Positions 9,916 through 28,228 of a stretch of DNA of 28,228 nt are shown piece after piece. Source of the DNA: Anaerolineae bacterium (GTDB taxonomy: Bacteria; Chloroflexota; Anaerolineae; S140-20); NCBI GenBank assembly GCA_027021705.1, contig JALUTT010000124.1, positions 1 through 28,228 on the forward strand. Direction: 5' to 3'. Each line of letters begins with the position of its first letter. Position 1 is the stretch's first letter. A program made the translations under genes and the position numbers. A model generated the notes under the pieces. That model made no database searches, was not told the DNA's origin, and saw nothing but the letters and a program-made list of their open reading frames with translations.

Positions 9916-9948
9916 TGACCCCGAAAAACGCCGGTAGGGGATTAGGAG

Positions 9949-11012: not shown

Positions 11013-11082
11013 GGGTGGTCGCGGCCGGGATCGTCTGGACGTCCGCATCGCTTCGGATTGGCTCCGTCCGGCCGACAACCCC

Positions 11083-11802: not shown

Positions 11803-11813
11803 AGGCGGATGAG

Positions 11814-13208: not shown

Positions 13209-13819
13209 TCTACGAGGTCCTGATGGAAACGGCCTCGCCCGATGAGGTGGTCCGCCGAATCACCCTCCCCTCCACCAAACACACGCCGGAGGGGGCTCTG
13301 GGCGTCCTCCCCGCTCACCTCAACCTGGCGGTTGCCGAGGTAGAATTGGTGGCCCTCTTCGAGCGGGAGCGCCGACTGGCCCGAGCGTTAGCCGCCCTTG
13401 AGTCCGACTACGACTTGATCATCGTTGACTGTCCGCCCAGCCTCAGTCTCCTAACCGTTAACGCCCTGATGGCGGCTACCGACGTCGTCGTCCCGGTGGA
13501 CCCCGGGCTTTTCCCCCTCGTTGGGCTGGGCATCCTCCGCCGGACCGTTGAGATGGTTCGGCGGAGCAATCGGAATCTGCGCCTGACGGGCATCCTGCCC
13601 ACCTTCGCGGACAGGACGGCCCTATTTCGAGACTCCCACGTCCAACTGAAGGCAGAGTTCGGCGACCTCGTGCTTCCCCCCATCCCCCGCAGGGTGGCGC
13701 TGGGGGAGGCCAACGCAGCCGGGCGGGATGTTTTCGCCTATGCTCCCTCCAGCGCCGGAGCACGGGCATATCGTCAGGTGGCCGATGCTTTGCTTCAGGC
13801 CCTATCGGAGCGGCAATGA
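13151..13819 (+). pseudogene. parA: ParA/Soj ATPase lacking the N-terminal Walker A region
   Basis: ATAVFLG...IYEVL...VLPAHLNLA...YDLIIVDCPPSLSLLTVNALMAA...IPRRVALGEA; no KGGVGKT upstream in frame. Confidence 0.85.
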
Positions 13820-14025
13820 AGATCGTCCGGTTGGAGGAACCGCTACCCTGTGGAGTCTATGGATGCAACCGTCCGGCCCGGGTGGTCGTTGCCGACCCGG
13901 ACCCAACGCAACCGGGTCGGTGGACAATGATGCCCGTTTGCCGTGATTGTGCCGTGTCAACGGCGGGTCTGTACGGGCTAAGCTCGGACGGACAACAGGA
14001 GAGGCAGAAGGGGGAGGAAAGATGA
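13816..14025 (+). CDS. Small putative zinc-binding protein
   Basis: CGVYGC...CRDC; ATGA overlaps on both sides. Confidence 0.65.
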   Translation: MKIVRLEEPLPCGVYGCNRPARVVVADPDPTQPGRWTMMPVCRDCAVSTAGLYGLSSDGQQERQKGEER

Positions 14026-14678
14026 ACAGGTCTGCCGCAACGGGATGGACGGTGACGATCTTGGTAATTCTGGCCCTTTTCCTGGGAAGCCGGATCCACT
14101 GGCGCCCCGGGGCCATCGTTGAACGACAGGCCGAGCGGATGGCCATCGAAAACGCGGCGCTCCAGGAGCGATTGGAGCGGGAAATGCCCTGGCGGGTGCG
14201 ATTCCGCGTCGGCCTGATGATGGCCGGGGTGGGCCTTGCCGCCGTTGCCGTCGTGGTAGCGGCCGGGGTGGGGGCCGGCCTGGTCTACTACACCTGGCAA
14301 AAGGCTTGGCAGAGTGCCAACACCGTCCGGCCGGATCGGCGTGGGATGTATCCCCTGCTCCAGGGCAAGGACGGCGGCACGTGGATCATCCATAACCCCA
14401 ATACCAACCTGGCCCCCACGACCGTCTACACATCGGACGAACAGGGGCGGGTGGTCGTCACCCACATCCTCTCCGGCTCCGAGCCGGCGCAACTGGCGAC
14501 CACCGCCCGGGCGCAGGCGGTCCAGGCGCTGACCGCAGCGGACCGCCGCGAGGGCAGCCTGCCCGCCTGGCTGCCCCGGCTCACCGGCAGGATCATCCCC
14601 GCGCCGGACCGCGTTCTGGACCTGGAGGTGGGTCGAGCATCCGGCGAGAAAGCCGAGGGGGTAAGCGACGGAGGATAG
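14022..14678 (+). CDS. Membrane protein, partner of downstream FtsK-like ATPase
   Basis: ATG 14022 after GGGGAGG; two hydrophobic segments; 1 nt from next gene. Confidence 0.7.
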   Translation: MNRSAATGWTVTILVILALFLGSRIHWRPGAIVERQAERMAIENAALQERLEREMPWRVRFRVGLMMAGVGLAAVAVVVAAGVGAGLVYYTWQKAWQSANTVRPDRRGMYPLLQGKDGGTWIIHNPNTNLAPTTVYTSDEQGRVVVTHILSGSEPAQLATTARAQAVQALTAADRREGSLPAWLPRLTGRIIPAPDRVLDLEVGRASGEKAEGVSDGG

Positions 14679-14679
14679 G

Positions 14680-15954
14680 ATGAAGGACGCCCGCGCCTTC
14701 TACGCCCGCACTGCTACGGCCATTGCCGATTACCTGGCCCAGGAACTCAGCATCCGGCCGGGGGCTCACTATTTCCTCCGCAACGCCGTCAACGGCCCTC
14801 GCGTCATTACCCTCTACCTGACCGTCAATCCCCGGTTCGCCTCGAAGATCACCTCCCTGGCCGAGCCCCTCTCGATGGCGGCCGGCCTGGATCGGGATGC
14901 CCACATCCGGGTGTCCAGGGCGAGCGGGGGGGCGCTGGCCCTGGAGATCCCCAAGCCCAGGGCGCTCTGGTATGACATCCCCGCCGCCGCTCTGCCGATG
15001 CGCCGGGGGTTGCGGGCCACCGTGGGGCTCGACACCGAGCACCGGCCCACTTTGCTCGATTACACGGACCCCCTCACCCCCCACACCCTCATCGCGGGGG
15101 CCACCGGCTGTGGGAAGACCAACGCCGAGCGCCTCATCGTCTACAACCTGGCGCTCGCCAATGCGCCCGAAGAGGTAGGATTCCTGCTCATTGACACCCG
15201 CAAGAGGGGGGCAGGATGGAGGCCCTTCAAGGCCCTCCCCCACCTACTCTACCCTATCATCACCGATGATAGGATGGCTCTGCGGGCGCTGGCCTGGGCC
15301 GTGACGGAGGTGGGGCGGCGGGCGGAAGGGGGCTCCTCGACGAAGCCCCAGATCTTCGTGGGGCTCGACGAAGCCCAGACGCTGCTGGAGCGGGAGGAAT
15401 TCGTCCGGTTGATCGGCAATCTGGCGGCCACGGGGAGGGAATTCGGCATCCATCTCATCGTCGCCACCCAGAACCCGACGGCGCGCCAGTTGGGGAGCGC
15501 CGACATCAAACGCAATTTCTCGGCCCGGCTGGTGGGGCGGGTGGACAGCCCCGATGCCAGCCGGGTGGCGGCCGGCGTAGGTGGGGCAGGGGCGGAGCGT
15601 CTGGCCGGCCCGGGCGACTTCCTCCTGGTCCGCCCCGGCGGAATCCTGCGCCTGGCCGTCGCCCTGCTGACGGAGAAGGACCTGGGCCGATTGCCCAGTA
15701 CGAATACGAAGGTGGAGCCCAAGCTCAACCTGGAGGCGTACCGGGACGTAGACCGGGTGCTGGATGCCGTCGCCGGGGTGCGGAGGCAGGCCGACCCGGC
15801 CCCGGACCCGGCCCCGCTGGCCTATGCCCTGGCCTATCCCAAGGCGAGTCAGCGGCAGATGTACGAGCGATTCCGAATCGGATTCCCTCGGATTCGGCAG
15901 ATTCAGGATTCGGCTCTACGGCGGCCAAGACGACGACCTCATTGCGTGGTTTGA
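14680..15954 (+). CDS. FtsK/SpoIIIE-domain ATPase (candidate coupling protein or DNA translocase); C-terminus probably fused at about 15905
   Basis: PHTLIAGATGCGKT Walker A, GLDEAQ Walker B, GREFGIHLIVATQNP, GAERLAGPGDFL. Confidence 0.9.
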   Translation: MKDARAFYARTATAIADYLAQELSIRPGAHYFLRNAVNGPRVITLYLTVNPRFASKITSLAEPLSMAAGLDRDAHIRVSRASGGALALEIPKPRALWYDIPAAALPMRRGLRATVGLDTEHRPTLLDYTDPLTPHTLIAGATGCGKTNAERLIVYNLALANAPEEVGFLLIDTRKRGAGWRPFKALPHLLYPIITDDRMALRALAWAVTEVGRRAEGGSSTKPQIFVGLDEAQTLLEREEFVRLIGNLAATGREFGIHLIVATQNPTARQLGSADIKRNFSARLVGRVDSPDASRVAAGVGGAGAERLAGPGDFLLVRPGGILRLAVALLTEKDLGRLPSTNTKVEPKLNLEAYRDVDRVLDAVAGVRRQADPAPDPAPLAYALAYPKASQRQMYERFRIGFPRIRQIQDSALRRPRRRPHCVV

Positions 15955-16240
15955 GACCCTGAATGACCTGCACTTCGGGGGGAAATCCCACGCCGTCAAG
16001 ACGGCACTGCGACGCGGGCTGGGCCTGGCCGAAGGGGGAAACGGGAACGGCAACGGTAACGGAGGAAAGCCCGACCTGGACCTGGCCGAGATTCGGGCGG
16101 TGGTGGAGGCTGCCGTAGCTACGGCTGTGGCCTCTCTCGGCGGAGAGATCCAGGGGGGAGCGTCCGGTAGCGCAGGTCAACGGGAGGAAGAAGAAATCGA
16201 GGCAGCCCTGGACCGGCTAGGGGCTGCGGTGATGATGTGA
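15902..16240 (+). pseudogene. Small RHH/ParR-like DNA-binding protein lacking a start
   Basis: FRIRLYGGQDDDLIAWFETL...KSHAVKTALRRG...EIRAVVEAAV; begins inside the FtsK 3' end with no RBS or start. Confidence 0.5.
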
Positions 16241-16264
16241 CGTGGATGCCTCAACCCGATACAT
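16217..16264 (-). pseudogene. RelE/ParE toxin remnant (MYRVEAS...)
   Basis: ATG overlapping the antitoxin 3' end reads MYRVEASTSHHHRSP*; MYRVE is a typical RelE start; runs head-on into the + strand gene ending at 16240. Confidence 0.5.
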
Positions 16265-16442
16265 CGGCCCGGTCCTCGGCCTCCAATTCGGCGACGATCT
16301 CGTCAAAGGGGCGGCCCTCGCCGGCCCGGTACTCGGCCTCGGCCTCGCGCATCGCGAGCAGGTCCTCCAGGTCCTCTACCCGGTCCAAGAGGGCACGGTA
16401 GACGTGGTAGGGGAGCAGGACGACGCGAACACCCTCGGACAT
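16251..16442 (-). CDS. Type II antitoxin-like protein, 63 aa, orphan
   Basis: VVLLPYHVYRALLDRVEDLEDLLAMREA...GEGRPFDEIVAEL, similar to the C-terminal half of 20681-20953; RBS GGGAGAGAGG. Confidence 0.75.
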   Translation of the reverse strand: MSEGVRVVLLPYHVYRALLDRVEDLEDLLAMREAEAEYRAGEGRPFDEIVAELEAEDRADVSG

Positions 16443-16479
16443 TGGACCTCTCTCCCGGTTCGTGCGGTAGGTTGAAGGA

Positions 16480-16490
16480 ATTATAACACA
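16480..16490 (-). promoter_or_regulatory. Extended -10 promoter for the orphan antitoxin
   Basis: Minus strand TGTGT-TATAAT about 40 nt upstream of the ATG. Confidence 0.65.
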
Positions 16491-16511
16491 GTTGGAAGGG
16501 AAGGGCGAACG

Positions 16512-16641
16512 ATGACTAACGACCGCCGGCCCTCGTTCAAAAGCTACATCCCTCAAGACGGCCCGCAAGGCCGTGAAGACCAAGGCGAAGAAGAGGGCAA
16601 CCCGTCGCCGGATCATCATCACCATCGCCAGGTGGCCGTAA
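16512..16641 (+). pseudogene. Frameshifted or fragmentary small basic protein
   Basis: ATG 16512 gives MTNDRRPSFK; the GC3-rich frame ATSLKTARKAVKTKAKKRATRRRIIITIARWP* is shifted by +1 at AAAA 16539-16542. Confidence 0.35.
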
Positions 16642-16665
16642 GAAGGCATTTCGGAGGTGAAGGGA

Positions 16666-17730
16666 ATGGCAGGCAAGCGGTTTAAGGGTGCATTAGACGT
16701 GTTGGGGGTGGTGGACCCTTACGGCACAGACACAGAGATCGGTCGCCCGGAAACCTTGATTACGCCCGAGCTTGAAGCGTGCTCTCCCGATCCCGATCAG
16801 CCCCGACAGGTCTTCCCTCCCGATTTACGGGGCCGGCTGATGGGCGGGGCCTCCCCGGCGGAGGTGCTGGACGCAGCGTGGGAGCGATGCTTGGGAGAGG
16901 ATCTGTACGCGGCGATGAGGTCCCGCGAATTATCCCCTGCCGAGGCCCTGGAAAGGCGGAGGGAAGCAGGGATTCTCGACCTGGCGCTGCAACTGACGCT
17001 TGAGGGGCTGGTGGAGCTGGCCGATTCCATCGTCCGGCACGGCCTGCGCCAGCCGATCAACGTGTACGACCTAGGCGGTGGAACGTATCGCATTGCCGAG
17101 GGGGAACGGCGCTGGTGGGCTCACGTCCATCTGTTCCACGTGTTGGGGAGGATGGAATTCGGGGTAATCCCGGCACGGGTGCATCCACTGCCGGAGGAAG
17201 GGAGCCTGGAAGTGCTGGCCCGCCAGCACGCCGAAAATGCCCACCGGCGGGACCTCTCTGCCGTCGCCCGCGCCCGCGCTATTGCAAGAGTGATGCAGGT
17301 AACATCAGAGGAATTTTCGGGAACCCGGGGTTCCCCGAAAATCGGGGCGACCTCGGACACAGGTGATTTTTCGGGAACCCAGGGTTCCCCAAAAAAGCGG
17401 GGTCGGCCCAAGGCTAGGGTGTCCGAGCACGATCTGCACGATCTGACCGGCCGGCGGCTGGCGGAACTGACCGGCAAGGGGATGAGCGGGAGGATGGTGC
17501 GGAACTACCTGGCCCTGCTCACACTCCCCCCGGAAGCCCAGGCGATGGCGGACGCGGCGGGGCTATCCGAGAAAGCCCTCCGACCCATCGTCGCCCTGGG
17601 CAATCCGGCGGAGCAAATCCGTCTGGTCCGTGCCCTTGCCGCCGGCGAGATGACGCCGGCGCAGGTGGCGGCGGAGGTGAAGCGCCTGGCCCGCAAGGCG
17701 GATGGCGGCGGGGGAGATTCCGACCCGTGA
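16666..17730 (+). CDS. parB: ParB/RepB/Spo0J family CTPase and DNA-binding protein
   Basis: RBS GGAGGTG; PDQPR, ELADSI..HGLRQPI, GERRW CTPase motif, ENAHRRDLS, HTH-like GRMVRNYLALLTLP. Confidence 0.85.
   Translation: MAGKRFKGALDVLGVVDPYGTDTEIGRPETLITPELEACSPDPDQPRQVFPPDLRGRLMGGASPAEVLDAAWERCLGEDLYAAMRSRELSPAEALERRREAGILDLALQLTLEGLVELADSIVRHGLRQPINVYDLGGGTYRIAEGERRWWAHVHLFHVLGRMEFGVIPARVHPLPEEGSLEVLARQHAENAHRRDLSAVARARAIARVMQVTSEEFSGTRGSPKIGATSDTGDFSGTQGSPKKRGRPKARVSEHDLHDLTGRRLAELTGKGMSGRMVRNYLALLTLPPEAQAMADAAGLSEKALRPIVALGNPAEQIRLVRALAAGEMTPAQVAAEVKRLARKADGGGGDSDP
17314..17395. repeat. Two copies of palindrome GGGAACCC-N-GGGTTCCC inside parB, candidate parS or operator
   Basis: Perfect 8-1-8 inverted repeats at 17319-17335 and 17373-17389, 54 bp apart, each flanked by TTTTC and AAAA. 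Confidence 0.7.
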
Positions 17731-17790
17731 GGATTGCCGGGCACATCGGACGCCGGCCCGTCCGACCCGCGAGGATTGCCGGGCATATCG
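17719..17790 (+). repeat. 30-bp direct repeat x2 (28/30) spanning the parB stop
   Basis: TCCGACCCGTGAGGATTGCCGGGCACATCG (17719-17748) and TCCGACCCGCGAGGATTGCCGGGCATATCG (17761-17790). Confidence 0.85.
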
Positions 17791-18123
17791 AGGTGCCGGG
17801 TCGGTTTCGGCTTTGCCGTGGCCCAAATCAAGCTATGTCAGGGCAGGTCTCCGGCCGGACTCGGCCTGGAGAGGGTTCCCCGCCGGTCCACCCCCTCCGG
17901 ACGGGCGGTAAAGGCGGGCCTTCGTGCCCCTCCCATCGGTACCGGAAGGACCCCGGGAGCCCGACGGCCCGGCTCGCCGGCGGGTAATCCGAGTCTCCGG
18001 GTGCCCCCCCTCGACGAACAGGGGCGGTCGGTCCGGTGACCGGCTTGGAGAGGGCGGCCGGGTCGGGCCGGGAGGGGGCGATGTGGCTCGCAGGAAAGGC
18101 GTATCACGCGCCGAGGGGTTGAG

Positions 18124-18903
18124 ATGGCAAGGGCGAGTTTCAATCCCCAATCGGGCGGGAGGCCGGTAGCGGTGACGGCCGGTGAATGCCCCCATTGCGG
18201 GGGGCTAGGGTATATCCGACGGGATGTGCCGGTGGGCCATCCCGACTTCGGGAAGCTCTTCCCCTGCCGCTGCCGGCTCCCCGAGATCGAAGCAATCCGC
18301 TTCTCCCGCCTTCTGGCCCTATCGGGCCTGGGGCCTGATCTGCAGGAGAAGCGGTTCGACAACTTCCGGGTGATTACGAAGCCTGCGGCAGGGGGCGGCA
18401 GGCCGGTCTCCAACCGGGCGGCCTTTGAGGCGGCTCGGTATTTCGCCGAGGAGCCGGAAGGGTGGTTGGTCCTGGCCGGGGGAAACGGCTGCGGCAAGAC
18501 CCACTTGGCGGCGGCCATTGCCAACCGGCAGCTTGCCTTGGGCAACCCCGTGCTCTTCGTCACCGTCCCCGACCTGCTCGACCATCTTCGGGCCACCTTT
18601 GCGCCCGATGCTCCCGTCCGCTTCGACGACCTGTTCGAGCGGGTGAAGGAGGTGCCTCTGCTAATCTTGGATGACTTGGGGGCTCAACAGAACACGGACT
18701 GGGCCTGGGAGAAGCTCTACCAGGTCCTGGTCTTCCGGCGCCATTGGCATCTGCCCCTGGTGGTGACGACGAACCTCGACGTGACGGTGTTTCCCGACCG
18801 GCGGATCGGTTCTCGGCTGAGCGAGCGAGGATGGGTGCGCCGGGTGCTGATCACCACGGGGGATTGGCGCACGAAACCCCGGCAGAAAGGAGTGCGACGG
18901 TGA
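18124..18903 (+). CDS. DnaC/IstB-like AAA+ ATPase (helicase-loader-like) with N-terminal Zn finger
   Basis: CPHCGGLGY...GHPDFGKLFPCRC; GGNGCGKTHLAAAI Walker A; LILDDLG Walker B; VTTN; RIGSRL. Confidence 0.9.
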   Translation: MARASFNPQSGGRPVAVTAGECPHCGGLGYIRRDVPVGHPDFGKLFPCRCRLPEIEAIRFSRLLALSGLGPDLQEKRFDNFRVITKPAAGGGRPVSNRAAFEAARYFAEEPEGWLVLAGGNGCGKTHLAAAIANRQLALGNPVLFVTVPDLLDHLRATFAPDAPVRFDDLFERVKEVPLLILDDLGAQQNTDWAWEKLYQVLVFRRHWHLPLVVTTNLDVTVFPDRRIGSRLSERGWVRRVLITTGDWRTKPRQKGVRR

Positions 18904-18935
18904 GGATTGTATTTTGCGTCTTTTACAAAAACCCC

Positions 18936-18964
18936 TTGACTTTCCCCCCGTTTCCGGGTATCCT
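18936..18964 (+). promoter_or_regulatory. Sigma70-type promoter
   Basis: TTGACT-17 nt-TATCCT with AT-rich tract upstream. Confidence 0.65.
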
Positions 18965-18991
18965 GTGATCGAGTGTGAGGACAAACGTTTC

Positions 18992-19082
18992 CGGTCGCAG
19001 ATCCCGCACCGGTTGATCGCCCGGAACCATACTCTCCGCCCCCCACCTTTCGGTCGCAGATCCCGCACCGGTTGATCGCCCG
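18992..19082 (+). repeat. Identical 32-bp direct repeat x2
   Basis: CGGTCGCAGATCCCGCACCGGTTGATCGCCCG at 18992-19023 and 19051-19082, 27-bp spacer. Confidence 0.95.
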
Positions 19083-19089
19083 ATAAGGA

Positions 19090-19210
19090 GTTCGTGGGGG
19101 AAAGGGGGATTGTTGTGCCTAAGACGGGGGCTTCAGGCCCCCGTTTGTCGTTGGGGCAGGATGGGCATCGCTCGCCCACCTGCCCCTTCTTTCGTTTCTC
19201 CCCCACGAAC
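19090..19210 (+). promoter_or_regulatory. Structured leader with terminator-like hairpin
   Basis: GTTCGTGGGGG (19090-19100) / CCCCCACGAAC (19200-19210) encloses hairpins 19122-19146 and 19153-19186, the latter followed by TTCTTTCGTTT. Confidence 0.6.
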
Positions 19211-19227
19211 CGAACAGGAGGTGAAGG

Positions 19228-19449
19228 ATGAAGCAGAAGGGGATGAGCAGAAGGATGTCCGAGATGGGGATCATCGCGATAGTTCTCATCTTACTTCTGG
19301 CCCTGACGGTGAGGCCGGGGGCCGATCTCCCCCAGGCGGGAATCGTGGACCGGCCCGGGGATAGGCCGGTTTCCTGTGTCCCCGTCTTCTGCCAAGTGGC
19401 CCGCCAGGCCGAGTATCTGGCGTGGGAAATCGAGCAGCTTGAACCTTGA
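19228..19449 (+). CDS. Small secreted or membrane protein
   Basis: RBS AGGAGGTG; one hydrophobic helix; CxxxxC. Confidence 0.6.
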   Translation: MKQKGMSRRMSEMGIIAIVLILLLALTVRPGADLPQAGIVDRPGDRPVSCVPVFCQVARQAEYLAWEIEQLEP

Positions 19450-19464
19450 GATAGGAGGTGTGCC

Positions 19465-19893
19465 GTGTTCCAAAAAGTCATCATCGTCGGAAACCTGGGG
19501 CGCGACCCGGAGATGCGTTACACCCCCGACGGGCGATCGGTGACGACCTTCACCGTCGCCACCAACGAAACTTGGACCGATAACGACGGTCAACGGCAGA
19601 AGCGCACGACCTGGTGGCGGGTTACGGCTTGGGGCCGAACGGCCGAAGCCTGCAACGAGTACCTGAGCAAAGGACGAACGGTCCTTGTCGAAGGTCGCCT
19701 GAACCCGGACCCGGAGACGGGCGGACCACGGGTCTGGACCGGCCGGGATGGGGAACCCAGGGCCTCTTACGAGTTGACGGCGTTGGTGGTGAAGTTCCTC
19801 GGCGGACGGGGTGGCGAGACGGTGGAGCTCGGTGCCGAGGACGAGGAGTCCGACGAAGCAGACGGTCCGTGGGGCGACGACATTCCCTTCTGA
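19465..19893 (+). CDS. ssb: Single-stranded DNA-binding protein
   Basis: KVIIVGNLGRDPEMRYTPDG...YLSKG..VLVEGRL; acidic tail DDIPF. Confidence 0.97.
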   Translation: MFQKVIIVGNLGRDPEMRYTPDGRSVTTFTVATNETWTDNDGQRQKRTTWWRVTAWGRTAEACNEYLSKGRTVLVEGRLNPDPETGGPRVWTGRDGEPRASYELTALVVKFLGGRGGETVELGAEDEESDEADGPWGDDIPF

Positions 19894-19931
19894 GGGATAG
19901 ACCTGGTATAAAGATCGCATAAGAGCGGCAT

Positions 19932-19966
19932 AAGCCCGACCGGCAACGAGGTCGCCGGTCGGGCTT
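19932..19966 (+). terminator. Hairpin after ssb
   Basis: AAGCCCGACCGGC / GCCGGTCGGGCTT 13-bp stem; weak U-tract. Confidence 0.55.
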
Positions 19967-20022
19967 CGTCGTCACCAAGCGGAACAACGGAAGCAACAAA
20001 ACGAAGGGAGAGGAGTGGGGAA

Positions 20023-20236
20023 ATGGCAAGAAAGTACGTGAGGAAGTAAGGGAAGCCGGGCGTTCTACCTGCCCGGCATTGGTTACTTGGATCGAACACA
20101 AGAGCGGCTGGTCAGGAGAACGGCTCGGGGTCTGGTCGGCCTGGTAGAGGCCGGCCTGGTTACGGAAGAAGAGGCCCGGGAGCGGATTCTGGAAATCCTC
20201 CGGTCTCACCGGGCCTTCTTTGCCTCGGCGGCGTAG
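20023..20236 (+). pseudogene. Small protein gene split by a +1 frameshift near 20044
   Basis: RBS GAGGAG, MARKYVRK* stops at once; shifted frame reads SKGSRAFYLPGIGYLDRTQERLVRRTARGLVGLVEAGLVTEEEARERILEILRSHRAFFASAA*. Confidence 0.5.
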
Positions 20237-20265
20237 CCGCCGGCAGGCTCCCCGGTAACTGCAAC

Positions 20266-20295
20266 AAAAAAGCCCCGGGCGGTGTCCAGGGCTTT
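20266..20295. terminator. Possibly bidirectional terminator
   Basis: AAAGCCC...GGGCTTT stem with A-tract on the left and TTT on the right. Confidence 0.5.
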
Positions 20296-20349
20296 CCCCC
20301 TGTGCTTGGAATTACACCGGATTCTGTGAAACCGTCAAGGAGGGTTCCA

Positions 20350-20565
20350 ATGGCACTCTTCGGATTCTGCCCGAAATGCGATATGGGAGAGGGACTCAAC
20401 CCTGCCAGAGGGAAAAGACAACGATGGAGAGAAGCCGTCTCCGTGCTGACGGCCCCTCCCTTAAACGGCCCCGCCGACCTGTCCATTCCCAAGATCGTGA
20501 TGGGGGAGGAGTGCAAGCACACCATCTCCCTCCGGGCTTGGAGGGAGTACAATCGGGTTCAATAG
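20350..20565 (+). CDS. Small putative zinc-binding protein, 71 aa
   Basis: RBS AAGGAGG; CPKC near N-terminus and CKH near C-terminus. Confidence 0.55.
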   Translation: MALFGFCPKCDMGEGLNPARGKRQRWREAVSVLTAPPLNGPADLSIPKIVMGEECKHTISLRAWREYNRVQ

Positions 20566-20602
20566 TTTCCCGCGTTTGGCAGGTCTAACCGGGAAACAGC
20601 TC

Positions 20603-20631
20603 TTGACAAGCCCGACAATCCGGTGTATAAT
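20603..20631 (+). promoter_or_regulatory. Perfect consensus sigma70 promoter of the TA operon
   Basis: TTGACA-17 nt-TATAAT. Confidence 0.9.
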
Positions 20632-20680
20632 AGCGACGGTAGCGGTTCCGAGGATTCTAGATAGTCCAAGGAGGCTAAGG

Positions 20681-20953
20681 ATGGAGACCGGTCTGAAGAC
20701 GATAGACGCCACGATGGCCCGGGCAAAGTTGGGAGACATTCTGGCCCGGGCGCGATACGGCCGACAGCGCTTCCTCGTCGAACAGCGAGGACAACCTGCC
20801 GCCGTGATCATAGGGTACGAGGACTTCCAGGAGCTGATGGCTCTTTTGGAAGACCTGGAAGACGTCCGGGATATGTTGCAGTCCGAGGGAGAGCCGACCC
20901 GCCCGCTGAGCGAGTACCTGGACGAGCGGAAGGAACGCTATGCCAACGTATGA
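20681..20953 (+). CDS. Phd/YefM family antitoxin
   Basis: IDATMARAKLGDIL...FLVEQRGQPAAVII..EDF; RBS AAGGAGG. Confidence 0.9.
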   Translation: METGLKTIDATMARAKLGDILARARYGRQRFLVEQRGQPAAVIIGYEDFQELMALLEDLEDVRDMLQSEGEPTRPLSEYLDERKERYANV

Positions 20954-21218
20954 GGTTCTGTTGCGGCGGAGGGCGGAGAAGCAACTGGATCAGGTCCCGT
21001 ATGCGGACCATCTCCGCATCGTGGAGGCCCTGTTGGCCCTGCAAGACGATCCCCGCCCGGCGGGCTGTCGCAAGCTTTTCGACGACATCTACCGCATTCG
21101 CGTCGGGGCCTACCGCGTCATCTACAAGGTGGATGACAAGGAGAAGCAGGTCGTGGTGGGCAAGATCGCCCGCCGGCGGGAGGACACGTACAAGAGGATC
21201 GGAGGGTTGTTTCAGTAG
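20940..21218 (+). CDS. relE: RelE/ParE family toxin
   Basis: YEVLL...AEKQL...DPRPAGCRKL...YRIRVGAYRVIY...RREDTY; overlaps antitoxin. Confidence 0.93.
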   Translation: MPTYEVLLRRRAEKQLDQVPYADHLRIVEALLALQDDPRPAGCRKLFDDIYRIRVGAYRVIYKVDDKEKQVVVGKIARRREDTYKRIGGLFQ

Positions 21219-21223
21219 GGGAT

Positions 21224-21312
21224 AAAAACACCGCGTCGGTGTGGCGGCACCGACGCGGCCTTGCCCACCGGTTGACGGGGTTCTCTGGAGGGAGTGCCGT
21301 ACCCCGGCAGGC
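21224..21312 (-). ncRNA. Predicted ~90-nt antisense RNA
   Basis: Minus-strand promoter at 21347-21319 and intrinsic terminator (11-bp stem 21231-21258 then UGUUUUU). Confidence 0.55.
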
Positions 21313-21318
21313 ACTATA

Positions 21319-21347
21319 ATTCTACCTCATCCTGCCCCCGGCGTCAA
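21319..21347 (-). promoter_or_regulatory. Minus-strand sigma70 promoter
   Basis: TTGACG-17 nt-TAGAAT. Confidence 0.7.
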
Positions 21348-21367
21348 GGAGACGCCCTTTCCCCGTC

Positions 21368-21406
21368 AACCGGCACGGGCTCCGGCCCCGTGCCGGTTTC
21401 CCTTTT
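21368..21406 (+). terminator. Leader intrinsic terminator (attenuator) upstream of 21442
   Basis: AACCGGCACGGG / CCCGTGCCGGTT 12-bp stem followed by TCCCTTTT. Confidence 0.7.
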
Positions 21407-21441
21407 ATCCCCTTTTCCCACATCCCCGGAGGAGGTGTCGT

Positions 21442-21672
21442 ATGCACAACGAACAGTATCGGCGGTATCTGGAACTCTGTAAGAATCGTCCCGATCTCGT
21501 CTCGATGTTGGGTCGTTTTGCGTCGGCGTACCACACCGTGCCCCAGGTACGGTCTGCCGTGCGACACCACGGCCTTTCCGAATACGAGGACGAGATCGTC
21601 GCCGCAGTGCGCTATCTGTGGTCCCTCTATTTAGGCCCGTATCCTATGACCAAGACCAAGGAGGTGGCGTGA
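21442..21672 (+). CDS. Hypothetical protein, 76 aa
   Basis: RBS GGAGGAGGTG; TGATG coupling with next gene. Confidence 0.7.
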   Translation: MHNEQYRRYLELCKNRPDLVSMLGRFASAYHTVPQVRSAVRHHGLSEYEDEIVAAVRYLWSLYLGPYPMTKTKEVA

Positions 21673-22079
21673 TGCCCTGCAATGCCGTGGCAAGGGCCGT
21701 TGGCTACGTTCCGGTAGAACTGGCCCGGGAGCTGGAAGCCCTGGGAGCGGAGGCGGTGGGGAAGGCCCTGTTGACCTTTCTCCGCCGGAACTTCGCCGAC
21801 CTGGGCGAACCCCGGATGCAGCTTTCCGGGGGCCAAATCAGAATTGTCCAAGGTAACTACCTGGTGCTGGTCATTGACGGACGGATTGTCGTCAATGCCC
21901 CCTACGGTGACCCCAAGGTCGTGGGGCAAATCAAGGACGCGGTGACCGATTTCATCACCGGCCTGGCCGGCCTGGCCCTCCAGAAACGAGTGGTCCGGGC
22001 CATCCGCCGGGCCGGTTATCGTGTCTCCAAGGAGCAACGAGCCCCCAACGGCGCCCTTGTGCTCCAGGTGGAACTGTGA
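21672..22079 (+). CDS. DUF1257/Ycf35-like protein
   Basis: C-terminal AIRRAGYRVSKEQRAPNGALVLQVEL resembles the DUF1257 tail; next to DUF2997-like and AAA genes. Confidence 0.5.
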   Translation: MPCNAVARAVGYVPVELARELEALGAEAVGKALLTFLRRNFADLGEPRMQLSGGQIRIVQGNYLVLVIDGRIVVNAPYGDPKVVGQIKDAVTDFITGLAGLALQKRVVRAIRRAGYRVSKEQRAPNGALVLQVEL

Positions 22080-22090
22080 GGAGGTGAACG

Positions 22091-22303
22091 GTGAAGGCGA
22101 GGATCGTCATCACAACCGACGGGCAGGTCTCCGTCTTCGTGGACGAGGGAACGATGGAGACCGGCCGGGAGGCCATCGAGCGTCTCTTCGCCGCCTTGGC
22201 CGCCCAGGGCGTGTCGGTGCGGTGGGACGGAAAGGTCGAGCAACACCGACACGACCGGGAGGCGGTAGGGCACGTGCACGTACACCGGGAGTTGAAGCAA
22301 TGA
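22091..22303 (+). CDS. DUF2997-like small protein with His-rich tail
   Basis: RIVITTDGQVSVFVDEG...IERLFAAL pattern; RBS GAGGAGGTG. Confidence 0.5.
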   Translation: MKARIVITTDGQVSVFVDEGTMETGREAIERLFAALAAQGVSVRWDGKVEQHRHDREAVGHVHVHRELKQ

Positions 22304-24012
22304 ACGGAAACGGCTTTCCCACACCGGCGTGGGCGACGGAAGTCCAGGAGAAGTATAGGGCGGGGATCGCCCACGCCTTCATCCTTCACTTCAACGTCCA
22401 CGACTACGCCGTCCCCGGGGTTCCTCTCACCACCTACCTGGCCCGGATGCTGGCCGGTCGCCGGGTGGTGGCCGTCTACTCCCGCGACCGGGGAATCACC
22501 TTCCCCCTTGACGGGATGCGGGAGCGTTTCCTGGAACTGATGGGCCTGGGAAACGAGGAACAATCGAGTGACCCGGCCCTGTCTGCCCTTCAGGCTCTCG
22601 GGATGGCTTCCGGGAACGAAGCCGGGGAGCTCCCCCGTGCCCCCGGCGAGGCCATCCCCCTGCTCGGTCGCTTTCTGCGGATGGGAGCCCCCGAGGAACG
22701 GGTCGCGGCGGTGATCATCGAGGCCACCGAGACGGTCGTCCCCGACGCCGACGTGGCGATGATGCCCCCGGCAGACCGAGACGTGCTGGTGGCCGTCTCC
22801 CGCTGGGGGCGAGACCCGCAGATCGCAACCGCCGGCAACCCCGTGTTCCTCATTACCCCCAACCTGTCGGCCTTGAATCCTGCGGTCCGCGCCGCCTCCT
22901 CCAAGTGGGAGGCGGTTAAGGTTCCCCTCCCCGATCCCGAACAGCGTCTCGCCTTCATCGAGTGGTACGTCGCTCAAAGGCCGGATGCCTTCGAGTGGGC
23001 CGACGATATGGATCCCCAGGCCCTGGCCAACGTCACCGCCGGCCTCTCCCTGATCCACATCGAGGACATCCTCCTCCGGGCCGAGGCGGAGGGGGGCCTG
23101 CGGCCGGAGATGGTCCGGGAGCGGAAGGAGTCCATCATCCGGTCGGAGTACGGCGACGTGCTGGAGGTAATGGAGCCCCGCTTCGGATTCGACGACATCG
23201 GCGGCCTCCGGCACGTCAAGGACTTCTTCGAGCGGTCGGTGATTCGGCCTATGCGCGAAGGCCGCCCGGGGCGGGTGCCGATGGGCGTGCTGATGACCGG
23301 CCCCGCCGGTACCGGCAAGTCCATTATGGCCGAGGCGGTGGCGAAAGAGGCCGGTGTCAACGCCGTCCGCCTCCGCATCGGAGGCCAGATCGCCAGTAAA
23401 TGGCAGGGCGAGGGCGAGCGCAACCTGGAAAAGGCCCTCGCCGCCATCGAGGGCCTGGCCCCTACCATCGTCTTCATTGACGAGGTGGACCAGGCCGTCA
23501 CCCGGGGGGAGGGCACCGGCGGCTCCCAGCAGGACAGCCGCATCTTCCAGCGGCTTCTGGAGTTTATGTCCGATACCTCTCATCGGGGGAAAATCGTCTT
23601 CCTGGCCGCCACCAATCGGCCCGACCTGATGGACGCCGCCCTCCGGCGTCCGGGCCGGTTCGACAAGAAGGTCCCCTTCCTGATCCCTGACGACGAGGAG
23701 CGGCGAGCCATCTTCGCCGTGATGTGCCGGCGATACGGCTTGCCTGCAAGGGATATACCGGCGGAGGCCGTCCAGGCCACCGATGGCTGGACGGGGGCGG
23801 AGATCGAGGCCGCCGTCGTCAAGGCCGTCGAGTTGGTCGAGGACGAGGACCTGGGGCCGGCCGAGGCGCTGGTCCAGGCCGTGAGGCGCATCCGGCCGTC
23901 CACGGCCGACATCGAGTTTATGACCCTCCTGGCCGTGGAAGTGAGACGGCGAAGCGTGGAGCGGGTTTCCCCGCTCCACGCTCGTTATATCCCTCGTGTA
24001 AAAGGTGTATAA
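22300..24012 (+). CDS. AAA+ ATPase (Ycf46/CDC48-like, inactive N-terminal and active C-terminal AAA module); last ~23 aa probably non-native
   Basis: FILHFNVHD N-terminus; GPAGTGKS Walker A, VFIDEVD Walker B, ATNRPDLMDAALRRPGRFD SRH. Confidence 0.9.
   Translation: MNGNGFPTPAWATEVQEKYRAGIAHAFILHFNVHDYAVPGVPLTTYLARMLAGRRVVAVYSRDRGITFPLDGMRERFLELMGLGNEEQSSDPALSALQALGMASGNEAGELPRAPGEAIPLLGRFLRMGAPEERVAAVIIEATETVVPDADVAMMPPADRDVLVAVSRWGRDPQIATAGNPVFLITPNLSALNPAVRAASSKWEAVKVPLPDPEQRLAFIEWYVAQRPDAFEWADDMDPQALANVTAGLSLIHIEDILLRAEAEGGLRPEMVRERKESIIRSEYGDVLEVMEPRFGFDDIGGLRHVKDFFERSVIRPMREGRPGRVPMGVLMTGPAGTGKSIMAEAVAKEAGVNAVRLRIGGQIASKWQGEGERNLEKALAAIEGLAPTIVFIDEVDQAVTRGEGTGGSQQDSRIFQRLLEFMSDTSHRGKIVFLAATNRPDLMDAALRRPGRFDKKVPFLIPDDEERRAIFAVMCRRYGLPARDIPAEAVQATDGWTGAEIEAAVVKAVELVEDEDLGPAEALVQAVRRIRPSTADIEFMTLLAVEVRRRSVERVSPLHARYIPRVKGV
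23953..23982 (+). terminator. Perfect 13-bp hairpin inside the apparent AAA 3' end
   Basis: AGCGTGGAGCGGG-TTTC-CCCGCTCCACGCT. Confidence 0.55.
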
Positions 24013-24041
24013 GAGACGAAGGAAAAGAAGGGAGGATACCG

Positions 24042-24967
24042 ATGAAGGTCACTTGCTTGCGCGAGGAGCTTTACAAGACCCTGGGCGTACTGCGTGGAGT
24101 CCAAGTGGGGCCGATGGTTTCCCACACGCTCATCACCGCCGACGAAAACGGCCTGACCCTCGCCGTGGCAGGTCTGGAACTGTACGCCCGGCGGCAGATC
24201 GAGGCAAAGGTGGAGGAGTCCGAGGGCGAAGTGGCCGTGCCCACCAAGTACCTCTACGAGATCGTAAAGTCTGCCCCCGGAGACGTGATCACCCTTGAGG
24301 CGGAGGCAGAAGATCTCTTGAACATCCGTTCCACGGGGTATCGGGCCACCCTTCGCGGGTTTCCCGACGTGTATCCGAATCCACGGATGCCCGTTACCGA
24401 GGACGCCGAATCCGTCGGCGTGAACGCGGAGGCCTTCCGAGCGATGCTGAACCGAGTGATCTTCGCGGTCTCGGACCGGCACTTGGTTCTCGGGAACGTA
24501 TTCGTTCAGTTCGAGGGGAACACGGTGGCCCTGGCGGCCTCGGACGGCGTCAGGCTGGCCTATTGCTCCGCCAACGGTGATCCCTCCCCCTCGGCCCGCG
24601 CCATCCTGGTTCCCCTGTCCGCGATGAAGCTGCTGAAATCCGTCCTCGCCCTGGACGGGGCGGAGTCGCTTGCCATCGTCTACGCCACGCGGCAGACCTC
24701 GACGTCGGGGGTTCAAGGAATGTCCGAGACCGAGTACGTCCGCTTTGTGACGGGACAGACCACGGTGGTCGCAAACCTGTACTCGGCGGAGTATCCCGAC
24801 TTCCGTAAGGTTATCCCCGACCCCCAAAAATCGAGGCGCTCTCTGCCATCGGCTCCCCCGATGTGGTTGTGGAGCTGTTCCCCCCTCGACAGCCGATGGT
24901 CATACGGCCTGCCGACGACGACGGTCTTAACTACGTCTACGTGGTGATGCCGATGGTTGCTTCCTGA
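24042..24967 (+). pseudogene. dnaN: DNA polymerase III beta sliding clamp with internal out-of-frame deletion in domain III
   Basis: GEVAVP..YL.EIVK, ASDGVRLA, YPDFRKVIP; at about 24830 jumps frame to IEALSAIG...YVYVVMPM, the clamp C-terminus. Confidence 0.85.
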
Positions 24968-24998
24968 TCGGCGGTTTTCCCCCCCCTCTCCCTCCCTT

Positions 24999-25104
24999 CG
25001 GGGCGGACGGCAAGGAGCCAATGCCGTCCGCCCCGTTCGTTTCGTTCGATGTGCCTCTTGGGGAAGCGGAGCAGGGGGCCGCCGGTGCTGCCCCCTGCTC
25101 CGCT
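24999..25104 (+). terminator. Two long perfect hairpins between dnaN and uvrD
   Basis: 14-bp stem 24999-25035 followed by TTCGTTTCGTT; 15-bp stem 25065-25104 just before the RBS. Confidence 0.6.
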
Positions 25105-25131
25105 CTTGAGTAACGCAAGGAGGTAAGGACG

Positions 25132-26955
25132 GTGAACAACGATGGGTGGGACTGGCTGGACGAATTGGGTCTCACAGATGAACAGAAAGAGGCCGTCCGC
25201 CATCCGGGGCCTGTGGCCCTCGTGGCCCCTCCCGGCAGCGGCAAGACCGCCGTCCTGACGGCCCGACTTGAGGCCCTGGTCAGGCGGGGGGAGGGCCACG
25301 CCACGCTGGCCCTGACCTTCACCCGGTCGGCAGCCCGGGAGATGCGGGAGCGGATCGCCGACCGGGTCTCCGAGGAGGACGTGAAGGCCGTAACCATAGG
25401 GACTTTCCACTCGGTCGCCTACGGCATCGTCCGAGCCCACTATCGGGACCTGGGCCTGGACGAGGAGCCCGGGGTGGCCGATGAGGAGTTTGCCCGCTAC
25501 CTGGCCCACCGGGCCTGGAAGCAGGCCGGTGAGCCGGGGGTCTTCGACCTCGTATGGGACGCCATCCGGGAGGCCAAAGGGGCCGGGCGGTGTCCCGAGG
25601 AGGAACCGGCATCCCAGGTGTACGAGCTCTACCGGGAGGAACTGCGGCGCTTCGGGATGGTGGACTTCGACGACTTGATCTTCCTGGCCCTCGAAGTCCT
25701 GATGGACACCGACACCCCGTTCGCCCACCTGTTCCAACACGTGCTGGTGGACGAGTTCCAGGACACAAACGAGGCTCAGTTGCTCCTCCTGGAGCGCCTG
25801 GCGAACGGGGAGGACGTCTTCGCCGTCGGGGATCCTCTCCAGAGCATCTACGGCTGGAGGGGGGCCATCGGCGACGTGGCCGTTTTCATCGATATATTCG
25901 GGGGGGAGGTCCTCCATCTGACGGAGGACTTCCGCAATCCGTCGGTCATCACCACCTTGGCCCGGCGTGTGGCCGCCGAGGTCTCGTCTCCTCCCACGCT
26001 GATTCCTCGGTGGACCGGCGGGGCGATCTCGATCCACCGCCACGACGACGACGGCGAGGAGGCCCGGTGGGTCGCCGAACGGGTTGCCGCCCTGCTCCGG
26101 CGGGGAATCCCCCCCAGGAGCATCGCCGTCCTGGCCCGCACCCACCGGGTGGTGGCGCGGGTGGAGATGACCTTGCGCCGGCGGGAGATTCCCGTCCGAC
26201 CGTTGGGGGAATCTCTCCTGCGCCGGTGGGAGGCACGGCACATTCTGGCGTACCTCTCCGCCCTCCTGACCGAGGACGAGGAGACACTGGAAAGGATCGT
26301 CAACGTGCCCCCTCGGCTCTCTCCGGCGTCCCTCGAGCGTCTGCGCCGGCGGGGGTTCTCCCTCTCCGCCTTGGCAGAGGAGTTGGAGAGGGGTAAACTA
26401 CGGGAGGAGGAGCAGGCTGCCCTGGCCGCCTTTCTGGAGGCATTCCGCGATCTGCGGGAGCGGGCGGCCGAGGTCCCGCTTCCCGACCTGATCCGCTTCA
26501 TTCCCCGCCGCATCGGGTACTACCGATGGCGGGGGGAACGGGGAGACGACGTGAAGGCGGTGAGACGGACGATCAATCTGCTCGCCGCCGTCGCCGGAGA
26601 CGACGCCGGGAAGCTGATCGAGATGGCTATGCAGGACCCGGATCGGGAAGGGGTGACCGTCGGCACGGTCCACGCGGCTAAAGGGCTGGAATGGCCGACG
26701 GTCTTCGTGGTCGGCCTGGAGGAGGGTGTCTTCCCCCACCATCGTAGCCTGTCGTCCTCTTTGGCGGAGGAGTATCGCCTCTTCTACACGGCGGTTACCC
26801 GGTCCTCCGACTCTCTGCTACTCTCTTGTGCGACCTATCGGGGGGAGGGCTCCCAAAAGCGGCAGGACCCGTCTCGCTTCTTAGCCTTGGCAAAAGAGGT
26901 TCTTCAAGATGGAGAGACACGAGATCGAGGACGTGAAGGCGAGGAATCCGGTTGA
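25132..26955 (+). CDS. UvrD/PcrA-like SF1 helicase
   Basis: LTDEQ, APPGSGKT, LTFT..AA.EM..R, VLVDEFQDTN, VGDPLQSIYGWRGA, TVHAAKGLEW, RLFYTAVTR. Confidence 0.95.
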   Translation: MNNDGWDWLDELGLTDEQKEAVRHPGPVALVAPPGSGKTAVLTARLEALVRRGEGHATLALTFTRSAAREMRERIADRVSEEDVKAVTIGTFHSVAYGIVRAHYRDLGLDEEPGVADEEFARYLAHRAWKQAGEPGVFDLVWDAIREAKGAGRCPEEEPASQVYELYREELRRFGMVDFDDLIFLALEVLMDTDTPFAHLFQHVLVDEFQDTNEAQLLLLERLANGEDVFAVGDPLQSIYGWRGAIGDVAVFIDIFGGEVLHLTEDFRNPSVITTLARRVAAEVSSPPTLIPRWTGGAISIHRHDDDGEEARWVAERVAALLRRGIPPRSIAVLARTHRVVARVEMTLRRREIPVRPLGESLLRRWEARHILAYLSALLTEDEETLERIVNVPPRLSPASLERLRRRGFSLSALAEELERGKLREEEQAALAAFLEAFRDLRERAAEVPLPDLIRFIPRRIGYYRWRGERGDDVKAVRRTINLLAAVAGDDAGKLIEMAMQDPDREGVTVGTVHAAKGLEWPTVFVVGLEEGVFPHHRSLSSSLAEEYRLFYTAVTRSSDSLLLSCATYRGEGSQKRQDPSRFLALAKEVLQDGETRDRGREGEESG

Positions 26956-27940
26956 GGAAGTCGTCGCCCGTTACGTGGAGCTTCGACGGCAAGGGCGACG
27001 GTACAGAGCACTGTGCCCCTTCCACAACGACACCGACCCCTCCTTGGTCGTCTTCCCCGACGAGGGGCGGTGGTGGTGCTTCGGATGCAATACCGGAGGG
27101 GATGTTATAGACTTCGTGATGAGGGCGGAAGGGGTCTCGTTCCGAGAGGCCCTGCGCATTCTGGGACACGCCCGCCCTCTGCCGGAGGGGAAAGGCCGGC
27201 CTCGCCGCCTTCCCTCCCGTTCCGCACCCCCTCCGACCTCCACGGCGCTCAACGATGCACGGCGAGGGCTGCTATCGGCGGCTGCGGAGGTGTACCGTGC
27301 CGCTTTGCACCGATCCCCCCACGCCCTCGACTACCTGGCAGAGCGAGGGATCTCCCCGGACGTGGCCGGGGAGTTCAAGGTGGGGTACGGCGTGGCCCTG
27401 GCGAAATACCTGCGCTTCCGGGGCTGGGACCCTCGTCTCGCCCGGGAGTTAGGGCTGCTGGATGAGCGGGGCCGCGAGTGGTTCCGAGGGCGGATTGTCA
27501 TCCCCGAGTATCGGGATGGACGGGCCGTCTACCTGGCCGGTCGGCAGATCCCCCGGGTGGCCTCCTTCGGCCCCAAGTACCTCTTCCTCCGCAACATCCC
27601 CAAGCCTCTGTACGGCTTGGAAAGGATCCAAAACTCTCCCGACGTTTTCGTTGTGGAGGGGCTGATAGACTACTTGATCCTGTGGGGATGGGGGTATCCG
27701 ACGGTTGCCCTCCTGGGCAACCGAATCCCCCGCCGCCACGCGGAAGCGCTGAGGGGGAGACGGGTCTACCTGGTTCCCGACCGGGATGATGGAGGGCGGG
27801 AGCTGTGGCGGGAGGCCCGACGGCTGTTCCCGGAGATGAGAACGGTGGTGATGCCCGAAGGGATCAAGGACGTGGGGGAGTTGGTGCTGGTGCCCCGTGC
27901 CCATCAGGCTTTCGGGCGGTTGGTGGACAAGGCCGTGTAA
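26909..27940 (+). CDS. dnaG: DnaG-type primase (CHC2 Zn finger + TOPRIM), no C-terminal helicase-binding domain
   Basis: CPFH.D..PS...WWCFGC; FRGRIVIP; PKYL; VVEGLID; PDRD. Confidence 0.93.
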   Translation: MERHEIEDVKARNPVEEVVARYVELRRQGRRYRALCPFHNDTDPSLVVFPDEGRWWCFGCNTGGDVIDFVMRAEGVSFREALRILGHARPLPEGKGRPRRLPSRSAPPPTSTALNDARRGLLSAAAEVYRAALHRSPHALDYLAERGISPDVAGEFKVGYGVALAKYLRFRGWDPRLARELGLLDERGREWFRGRIVIPEYRDGRAVYLAGRQIPRVASFGPKYLFLRNIPKPLYGLERIQNSPDVFVVEGLIDYLILWGWGYPTVALLGNRIPRRHAEALRGRRVYLVPDRDDGGRELWREARRLFPEMRTVVMPEGIKDVGELVLVPRAHQAFGRLVDKAV

Positions 27941-27945
27941 CGAGG

Positions 27946-27977
27946 GCCTGCCTCTCATCTCCGGGTGAGAGGTGGGC
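27946..27977 (+). terminator. Hairpin after primase
   Basis: GCCTGCCTCTCATC-TCCG-GGTGAGAGGTGGGC then TGTT. Confidence 0.55.
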
Positions 27978-28228
27978 TGTTGAGTATACACACATCTTGA
28001 CACTCTCCTCACGCGGCCACGTTGGCAGTGGGGGGGGTCCAGATAGCCAAAGCGGTGGACCTGAGGGCTGTGGAAGGCGTGATCTCTATGGGCGGGTCGC
28101 GATAGGAGTTTCCCCAACGGGGATCACTCGCCATCGGCTCGATCCCGAGAATGCCGGCCAGTCCCCGGATGGTTATGTGCCGTCCGGCGTAGCGCTCAAC
28201 CGGGGGGCGCCAACCCAGGGCCGAGTGC

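Follow-up and report, generated by a model that had tools for sequence, protein, structure and literature searches.

Between a ParE-type toxin gene and a short open reading frame (ORF1) on a contig of an Anaerolineae bacterium lies a gap of about 220 bases (21219-21441). We think, with somewhat better than even confidence, that this gap is an intercistronic transcriptional attenuator driven by a countertranscript, of the type described for pT181, pIP501 and pCF10. The window that we analyzed is the whole contig (C124; 28,228 nucleotides, nt) of a 5.19-Mb genome in 183 contigs (G000; 5,190,633 bases), and coordinates refer to the window unless another contig is named. The reading comes from signals in the DNA and from modeled folds. 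We favor it because all of its parts are present, each of them is rare, and the space before ORF1 is too short for a separate promoter.

The sense-strand part of the arrangement consists of an intrinsic terminator and an upstream sequence able to pair with it. The terminator stem has 12 pairs, 9 of them G-C, around a 7-nt loop, and the hairpin alone folds at −25.8 kcal/mol. Between its tail and the ribosome-binding site of ORF1 are 19 nt. That spacing leaves no room for a promoter, so any ORF1 transcript must cross the terminator. The stretches 21268-21280 and 21361-21373 are exact 13-nt complements, and the second overlaps the 5′ arm of the terminator by 6 nt. The gap also contains an outer 10-nt inverted repeat (21219-21228 with 21403-21412) and a + strand TATAAT (21315-21320) that overlaps the minus-strand −10 hexamer. 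The two halves of the gap have in common only the 13-mer and a tail of 10 nt, which points to selected complementarity rather than to a duplication; we rejected an inverted duplication as the origin of the gap because the halves are not homologous beyond those two pieces.

On the minus strand, a promoter-like site and a terminator would together define a two-hairpin RNA of about 91 nt. The predicted RNA has a minimum free energy (MFE) of −50.8 kcal/mol (z −4.3), and none of 200 shuffled sequences was as stable. Its region, 21222-21312, covers the upstream arm of the 13-nt pairing. The hairpin that would end it (21230-21259) lies directly after the toxin gene and has no T run when read on the + strand; transcription from the toxin gene would therefore continue into the leader. 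No Rfam family matched at its gathering score anywhere in the window. The families ar7 (24.3 bits against a gathering score of 60) and BjrC68 (14.8 against 39), which appeared when E values up to 10 were allowed, were rejected for falling below those scores.

An earlier note on this DNA had described a + strand terminator just before the ribosome-binding site of the gene at 21442, an exact 13-nt complement overlapping its 5′ arm, and a minus-strand promoter and terminator defining an RNA of about 90 nt. All of these signals were recovered here at the positions given in Table 1. The outer inverted repeat and the + strand TATAAT were not among the features that it listed.

Table 1. Features of the gap and of the genes on either side of it.
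Feature	Coordinates	Strand	Remarks
Outer inverted-repeat arm	21219..21228	+	partner of 21403-21412 when the full-length leader is folded
Upstream arm (pre-emptor; antiterminator 5′ arm)	21268..21280	+	within the stretch under the predicted countertranscript
Downstream arm of 13-bp (base pair) antiterminator helix	21361..21373	+	21368-21373 common to the terminator stem
Intrinsic terminator	21368..21408	+	12-pair stem 21368-21398, then TCCCTTTTAT
Outer inverted-repeat arm	21403..21412	+	overlaps terminator T run
Ribosome-binding site of ORF1	21428-21435	+	GGAGGAGG; ORF1 ATG at 21442
Promoter-like site	21347..21319	-	TTGACG-17-TAGAAT, 10/12; consensus scan
Predicted countertranscript	21312..21222	-	~91 nt, two hairpins; ends placed from promoter and terminator
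Intrinsic terminator	21259..21220	-	12-pair stem 21259..21230, then GTTTTTATCC
Promoter-like site	20603..20631	+	TTGACA-17-TATAAT, 12/12; ahead of the toxin-antitoxin pair
PhdYefM-type antitoxin gene	20681..20953	+	Pfam PF02604, E 2.2e-12, 47 bits, above cutoff
ParE-type toxin gene	20940..21218	+	Pfam PF05016, E 5.7e-08, 33.7 bits, above cutoff
ORF1	21442-21672	+	76 amino acids (aa); ribosome-binding site GGAGGAGG; no Pfam or PHROG family
ORF2	21672-22079	+	135 aa; DUF1257-like lead only
ORF3	22091-22303	+	70 aa; DUF2997 E 0.17, 12.3 bits against cutoff 24.1
AAA ATPase gene	22300..24012	+	570 aa; credible start ATG 22300
DNA polymerase III beta (sliding clamp)-like gene	23724..24947	+	Pfam; phrog_947
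UvrD/REP-type helicase gene	25132..26955	+	Pfam
DnaG-type primase gene	26909..27940	+	Pfam; CHC2 zinc finger and Toprim
Replic_Relax/helix-turn-helix (HTH) protein gene	11814-13208		Pfam/PHROGs
ParA-like ATPase gene	12494-13819		Pfam/PHROGs
FtsK/SpoIIIE protein gene	14680-15954		Pfam/PHROGs
ParB gene	16657-17730		Pfam/PHROGs
DnaC/IstB-like loader gene	18124-18903		Pfam/PHROGs

These signals are uncommon in this DNA. Of 5000 dinucleotide-shuffled versions of 21219-21441, 5 contained an inverted repeat of at least 13 nt with a gap of at least 20. The 28-kb window holds two promoter matches of at least 10/12, at 20603 and 21347, against a shuffle mean of 0.28, and two or more occurred in 10 of 300 shuffles; the genome-wide count is 625 in 5,190,633 bases, one per 8305 bases. 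The rest of the window adds one 9/12 site in 1-19500 and another in 23000-28228. No terminator-like site in the window outside the gap has more than 7 pairs, and the gap holds the window's only two 12-pair terminators. Across the 5.19-Mb genome we counted 215 terminator-like sites with perfect stems, 7 of which have an upstream complement of at least 12 nt overlapping the 5′ arm. Five of these seven are copies in tandem hairpin arrays (C44, C77 and three in C178), which leaves the gap site and one other, C171:77918-77945. It is unlikely that chance alone brought together the terminator, the 13-nt complement and the minus-strand promoter-terminator pair. The gap itself is present once in its own genome. 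A search with it returned the locus and short, chance-level matches, and we rejected a dispersed repeat or miniature inverted-repeat transposable element on that result.

The genome searches drew attention to a few other places. On the + strand of C171 (77720-78005), the hairpin at 77918-77945 has a 16-nt complement about 85 nt upstream, placed directly behind a stop codon, and a TTGACC-17-TACAAT promoter-like site follows; judged by its sequence, this may be a second attenuator-like arrangement in the genome. G+C-rich hairpins with T runs form tandem arrays at C178:150-355 (period of about 92 nt), C44:9117-9138, C77:115739-115770 and C14:15483-15829. A 26-nt stretch at C77:57000-57025 (locus L002, approximately 1500-1526) is 92% identical to window positions 21351-21376 (E value 0.002). 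It falls within the first codons of a gene whose product resembles the N-terminus of DNA polymerase I, and the likeness could be either chance or mimicry.

Folding predictions were made for the free leader and for a leader with 21222-21312 held unpaired as a mimic of bound antisense RNA. The MFE structure of the full leader (−108.5 kcal/mol, z −4.9) holds the 13-bp long-range helix and not the terminator. When prefixes starting at 21219 were folded, the 13-bp helix had formed by 21372, ahead of the terminator's 3′ arm. The lower six pairs of the terminator had a probability of about 0.38-0.40 in the free leader, which rose to 0.96 with the antisense mimic. A forced terminator leaves 7 pairs of the long-range helix in place beside it because the overlap is 6 nt. 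In these models the free-leader switch is thermodynamically balanced and not decisive, and its direction would therefore rest on the order of folding, which such predictions do not simulate. The earlier note had proposed a comparison of the leader's folding with and without the antisense RNA. In the models, covering 21222-21312 favors the terminator; the preference of the free leader proved to be balanced and dependent on context. Folding supports the proposed logic in part.

The + strand transcript that enters the leader likely comes from the promoter of the toxin-antitoxin pair at 20603. This source had been suggested before, and the consensus scan agrees with it: the 20603 site is the only sigma-70-like + strand promoter that it found upstream of the leader, and it gave no further + strand promoter-like site in 19500-23000. 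The antitoxin and toxin genes are adjacent and overlap by 14 nt, and both Pfam matches are above cutoff, as expected of a type II PhdYefM-ParE pair.

If the gap is an attenuator, transcription from the 20603 promoter would cross the Phd and ParE genes and, passing 21230-21259 without a U run, enter the leader. In a free nascent leader, 21268-21280 would pair with 21361-21373 once the latter is made, thereby holding the lower six pairs of the terminator, and the polymerase would then read into ORF1, ORF2, ORF3 and the AAA, clamp, UvrD and DnaG genes. The opposing RNA of about 91 nt, started from 21347..21319 and ended at 21259..21220, would be fully complementary to 21222-21312. Bound to the nascent leader, it would cover the upstream arm, allowing the 12-pair terminator to form and transcription to stop near 21400-21408. 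The level of this RNA would track the copy number of the element, which would put a replication-type operon under negative feedback, and convergent transcription may add interference. The signals, their rarity and the predicted shift in folding are what we observed; from them we infer the existence of the two RNAs, the termination and the biological role.

Six sequencing runs were listed for the locus, none of them an RNA run. Natural variants were available in contigs of four DNA runs (X1-X4), which we set against 20550-22100; X1 is possibly the source sample itself. The X2 contig has 19 differences over 20616-22100, none of them between 21208 and 21631, and the X4 contig, covering 21302-21536, has none at all. 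X3 carries 21 substitutions and 2 indels over 20550-21840 (1291 nt), with 12 of the substitutions and both indels within 21242-21302; outside the changed patches it is roughly 99% identical. Four of its differences turn the 6-nt loop 21242-21247 into the exact reverse complement, which amounts to an inversion of the perfect hairpin (21231-21258). The other clustered differences exchange the sequence of 21283-21302, which lies at the apex of the 5′ hairpin in the minus-strand RNA. The variants therefore differ in both predicted loops of the small RNA and in the leader sequences complementary to them. X3 leaves the 13-mers, the right terminator and both hexamers of the minus-strand promoter intact, and all signals are kept in the contigs of three other runs. 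We folded the X3 variant by applying the listed differences to the reference sequence. Its minus-strand RNA kept the two-hairpin shape (−56.1 versus −50.8 kcal/mol), and the matching + strand piece was less stable (−16.2 versus −22.8 kcal/mol). The changed loops are suggestive of altered antisense recognition.

Several results weigh against an attenuator. The T run of the + strand terminator (TCCCTTTTAT) is interrupted. The forced terminator fold, at −106.7 kcal/mol, lies 1.8 kcal/mol from the antiterminator fold at −108.5 kcal/mol, with just 6 nt common to both. When upstream context was added from 21100, 20900 or 20640, with the 3′ end at 21400, the MFE structure of the free leader already had all 12 terminator pairs. 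The evidence from variants amounts to one contig and two mutational events, and loop flips arise mechanically at any perfect hairpin. None of our searches found a homologous leader. The nearest relative of the operon (L010; AAA 75%, ORF2 51%) has neither ORF1 nor the leader, and scans of four further loci (L013, L014, L016 and L019) gave nothing equivalent to the leader. No recognizable Rep initiator follows the leader, and Pfam gave no Rep family in ORF1-ORF3.

Some of these points would suit another explanation, in which the toxin-antitoxin operon simply leaks past its own terminator at 21368-21408, the opposing transcript is a separate small RNA (acting in trans, through RNase III cleavage of the duplex, or only by promoter collision) and the 13-nt pairing has no part in antitermination. 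The site is the first + strand terminator that the toxin-antitoxin transcript would meet, given that the hairpin after the toxin gene is not one; the near-equal folds, with some contexts giving the terminator without any antisense RNA, also fit. For pCF10, RNase III-dependent antisense control has been described alongside attenuation (PMC3181467). However, a 13-nt complement overlapping a terminator arm beneath an antisense RNA is rare, as the 5 of 5000 shuffles and the two non-array cases among 215 sites attest, and an ORF1 operon without room for its own promoter needs read-through to be provided for. We regard this explanation as rather unlikely. A different account of the gap is a pair of divergent small-RNA units, with the + strand TATAAT at 21315-21320 starting an RNA of about 80 nt that is ended by the right terminator and mirrors the minus-strand RNA, so that the symmetry of the layout would reflect a small-RNA pair and not a leader switch. 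That −10 hexamer is perfect and overlaps its minus-strand counterpart, both arms read outward as 13-mer, hairpin and the same 10-nt tail, and an RNA of 21327-21410 folds as a small hairpin plus the full terminator. Yet the best −35 for this TATAAT matches the consensus at 1/6, the consensus scan made no call there, and the bases exchanged in X3 include the −35 region. Two divergent units would also leave the ORF1 operon without a route of transcription except through the terminator, and we give this account little credence.

We thought a DNA-level site, either an operator bound by a protein or a portion of a replication origin, with incidental RNA-like signals, slightly less credible again. 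The position of the gap between partition/loader genes and replication-fork genes would be apt for such a site, and the nested 10-nt and 13-nt inverted repeats do flank its most A+T-rich stretch. Against this, the gap has no direct repeats or iterons that we could find, and the 13-mer occurs elsewhere in the window at chance level (4 matches at up to 2 mismatches, with 3.4 expected). A DNA site would need neither hairpins with correctly oriented T runs nor a promoter at the right distance, and the gap has both. A chance arrangement with no function seems very improbable to us. G+C-rich sequence does ease the formation of hairpins, and conservation was seen only in near-identical variants; but the joint rarity of the parts, the leader fold at z −4.9 and the retention of all signals in contigs of three other runs stand against chance. 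An attenuator controlled by the countertranscript is thus the explanation that we prefer for the gap.

The search for relatives of the leader covered genomes, viral contigs, metagenome contigs and plasmids. A blastn search with 21200-22079 against 400 other Chloroflexota genomes gave only chance matches of 22-46 nt, in 10 genomes; one of the short matches is 27 nt to the terminator hairpin, in genome G368. A 19-nt pattern had no match in viral contigs, and blastn against plasmids found none. ORF2 had no match in 60 relatives and none in viral contigs. The sole ORF1 locus from metagenome contigs (L020) was rejected, being a chance hit within a long reading frame that is unrelated. L013, which is distantly related to the operon, has a 12-pair hairpin between the upstream gene and the ORF2 homologue (3164-3338), and an antisense promoter-like site (10/12) falls inside the 5′ end of ORF2; such sites occur at chance density in the A+T-richer DNA of L013. 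A relative of the AAA protein on a Paenibacillus megaplasmid has 33% identity and an uninformative annotated context.

The regions downstream of ParE relatives were also examined, in a tally of 11 that includes one unpublished genome (G282), on which nothing beyond this tally depends. A perfect hairpin of at least 9 pairs was present in 2 of the 11 (two hairpins in L036 and one in L044). We rejected the idea that the small RNA is part of the toxin-antitoxin module on this count, and L036, the only one of the two that was read, is unrelated in sequence. L036 holds the closest ParE relative, and in its downstream region (1860-2012; G084:C67) a palindromic motif occurs three times, together with a terminator of 17 pairs. 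The latter is similar in its core to the hairpin of C171, and this may be a palindrome that Chloroflexota share.

Downstream of the leader, the earlier note had placed an uncharacterized operon with DUF1257 and DUF2997 genes. The operon runs on into clamp, UvrD and DnaG-type genes, and the family labels did not hold up: Pfam searches of ORF1 and ORF2 at E values up to 10 gave no DUF1257 or DUF2997 match, and the DUF2997 match of ORF3 falls below its cutoff. In the ESM Atlas, ORF2 lies near clusters with DUF1257 in 28-57% of their members, no more than a lead. Our literature search on DUF1257 and DUF2997 turned up only mentions in cyanobacterial gene clusters. ORF1 is close to an orphan, with 2 clusters among about 5.8 billion proteins, one identical and one 88% identical (P0002). 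The identical cluster is found on 3 contigs, the longest of 61,552 bases. A longer ORF1 running through the gap from an in-frame GTG at 21241 was rejected, since a strong ribosome-binding site precedes 21442 and P0002 also has 76 aa. For the AAA ATPase, whose relatives are mostly in metagenome-assembled genomes of Chloroflexota, the frame from GTG 22021 (663 aa) has an implausible arginine- and glycine-rich N-terminus, and we place the start most probably at ATG 22300. ORF3 overlaps the AAA start at 22300, and a similar small ORF occupies the same place in L010. In the clamp-like frame the Pfam match begins at residue 111, so the true start lies later than 23724.

The element that carries the leader is plausibly plasmid-like or like an integrative and conjugative element, judging from its partition, loader and replication-fork genes (Table 1). 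The scanned ORFs of the window gave no structural PHROG, save a weak secondary match of the FtsK-like protein to a terminase family.

The pT181 leader offers a close parallel. For the repC leader of this Staphylococcus aureus plasmid, PMC5703833 describes an 87-nt RNAI, a pre-emptor and a terminator-like stem-loop IV just before the start codon; binding of the antisense RNA frees the 5′ arm of the terminator from the pre-emptor, and the terminator forms. The gap appears to have the same parts as sequence signals, namely a predicted RNA of about 91 nt, a candidate pre-emptor and a terminator just 5′ of a start codon. The match with pT181 and pIP501 claimed in the earlier note is supported in silico at the level of layout (PMC5703833). 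Unlike pT181, the leader lies between a toxin-antitoxin pair and an operon and not at the 5′ end of the messenger RNA, its host belongs to Chloroflexota and not Bacillota, and it has no sequence or Rfam family relation to the plasmid. The gated genes differ too, being small ORFs, an AAA ATPase, a clamp, a helicase and a primase where pT181 has a Rep_trans initiator.

For pIP501 and pAMbeta1, the same source describes a terminator induced by RNAIII in a long repR leader, a CopR repressor on the upstream promoter and convergent transcription (PMC5703833). By analogy, an autoregulating toxin-antitoxin pair could play the part of CopR here. Repression of the 20603 promoter by Phd/ParE is our assumption from general knowledge of type II systems. 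Unlike pIP501, this locus has no Cop-type HTH gene and no RepR homologue. The controlled gene is an initiator in pT181 and pIP501; it is not one in pCF10, and no initiator is recognizable here.

In the Enterococcus faecalis plasmid pCF10, as PMC3181467 describes it, Anti-Q attenuates a long non-rep operon at the IRS1 terminator of prgQ, and titration of the small RNA leads to read-through. The operon gated here would likewise belong to a mobile element and not be a rep gene. The systems differ in that Anti-Q, in that account, derives through processing from the 5′ end of a longer operon read in the opposite direction, whereas the predicted small RNA has its own terminator, and in that pCF10 senses a pheromone and we saw no signaling genes in this locus. 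RnaG of Shigella flexneri is a cis-antisense RNA from a strong convergent promoter that induces a terminator in the icsA sense leader and adds transcriptional interference, according to PMC2879508. Together with a predicted repABC countertranscript, it extends attenuation to Gram-negative bacteria in that account (PMC2879508). RnaG has another target gene and leader position and, as given there, is longer, with a 120-nt antisense region. The earlier note had also proposed a burst in a new recipient that lacks the RNA. For R1 and pMV158, a comparable burst after transfer to a new host is reported where the repressor layer of control is concerned (PMC5717011).

Taken as a sequence-level prediction, the locus is a clean case of an ordinary kind of control and not a new principle. 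We offer one wider proposal tentatively, and think it rather unlikely: that two self-regulating layers, an autorepressed promoter of the toxin-antitoxin pair and an attenuator gated by the countertranscript, act on the element's entire replication-fork operon and not on a single initiator, and that the loop swap between co-occurring variants would have changed antisense specificity and with it incompatibility. To our knowledge, most known cases of countertranscript-driven attenuation come from plasmids of Bacillota and a few Proteobacteria, and we know of almost no plasmid genetics in Chloroflexota. If the reading of the gap is correct, this form of control would extend to Chloroflexota and to a multi-gene replication-fork operon read from a toxin-antitoxin promoter. 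The loop-swapped variant would be a natural test of how antisense specificity diverges, and the locus would provide a handle on the control of copy number and establishment in the mobile elements of Chloroflexota.

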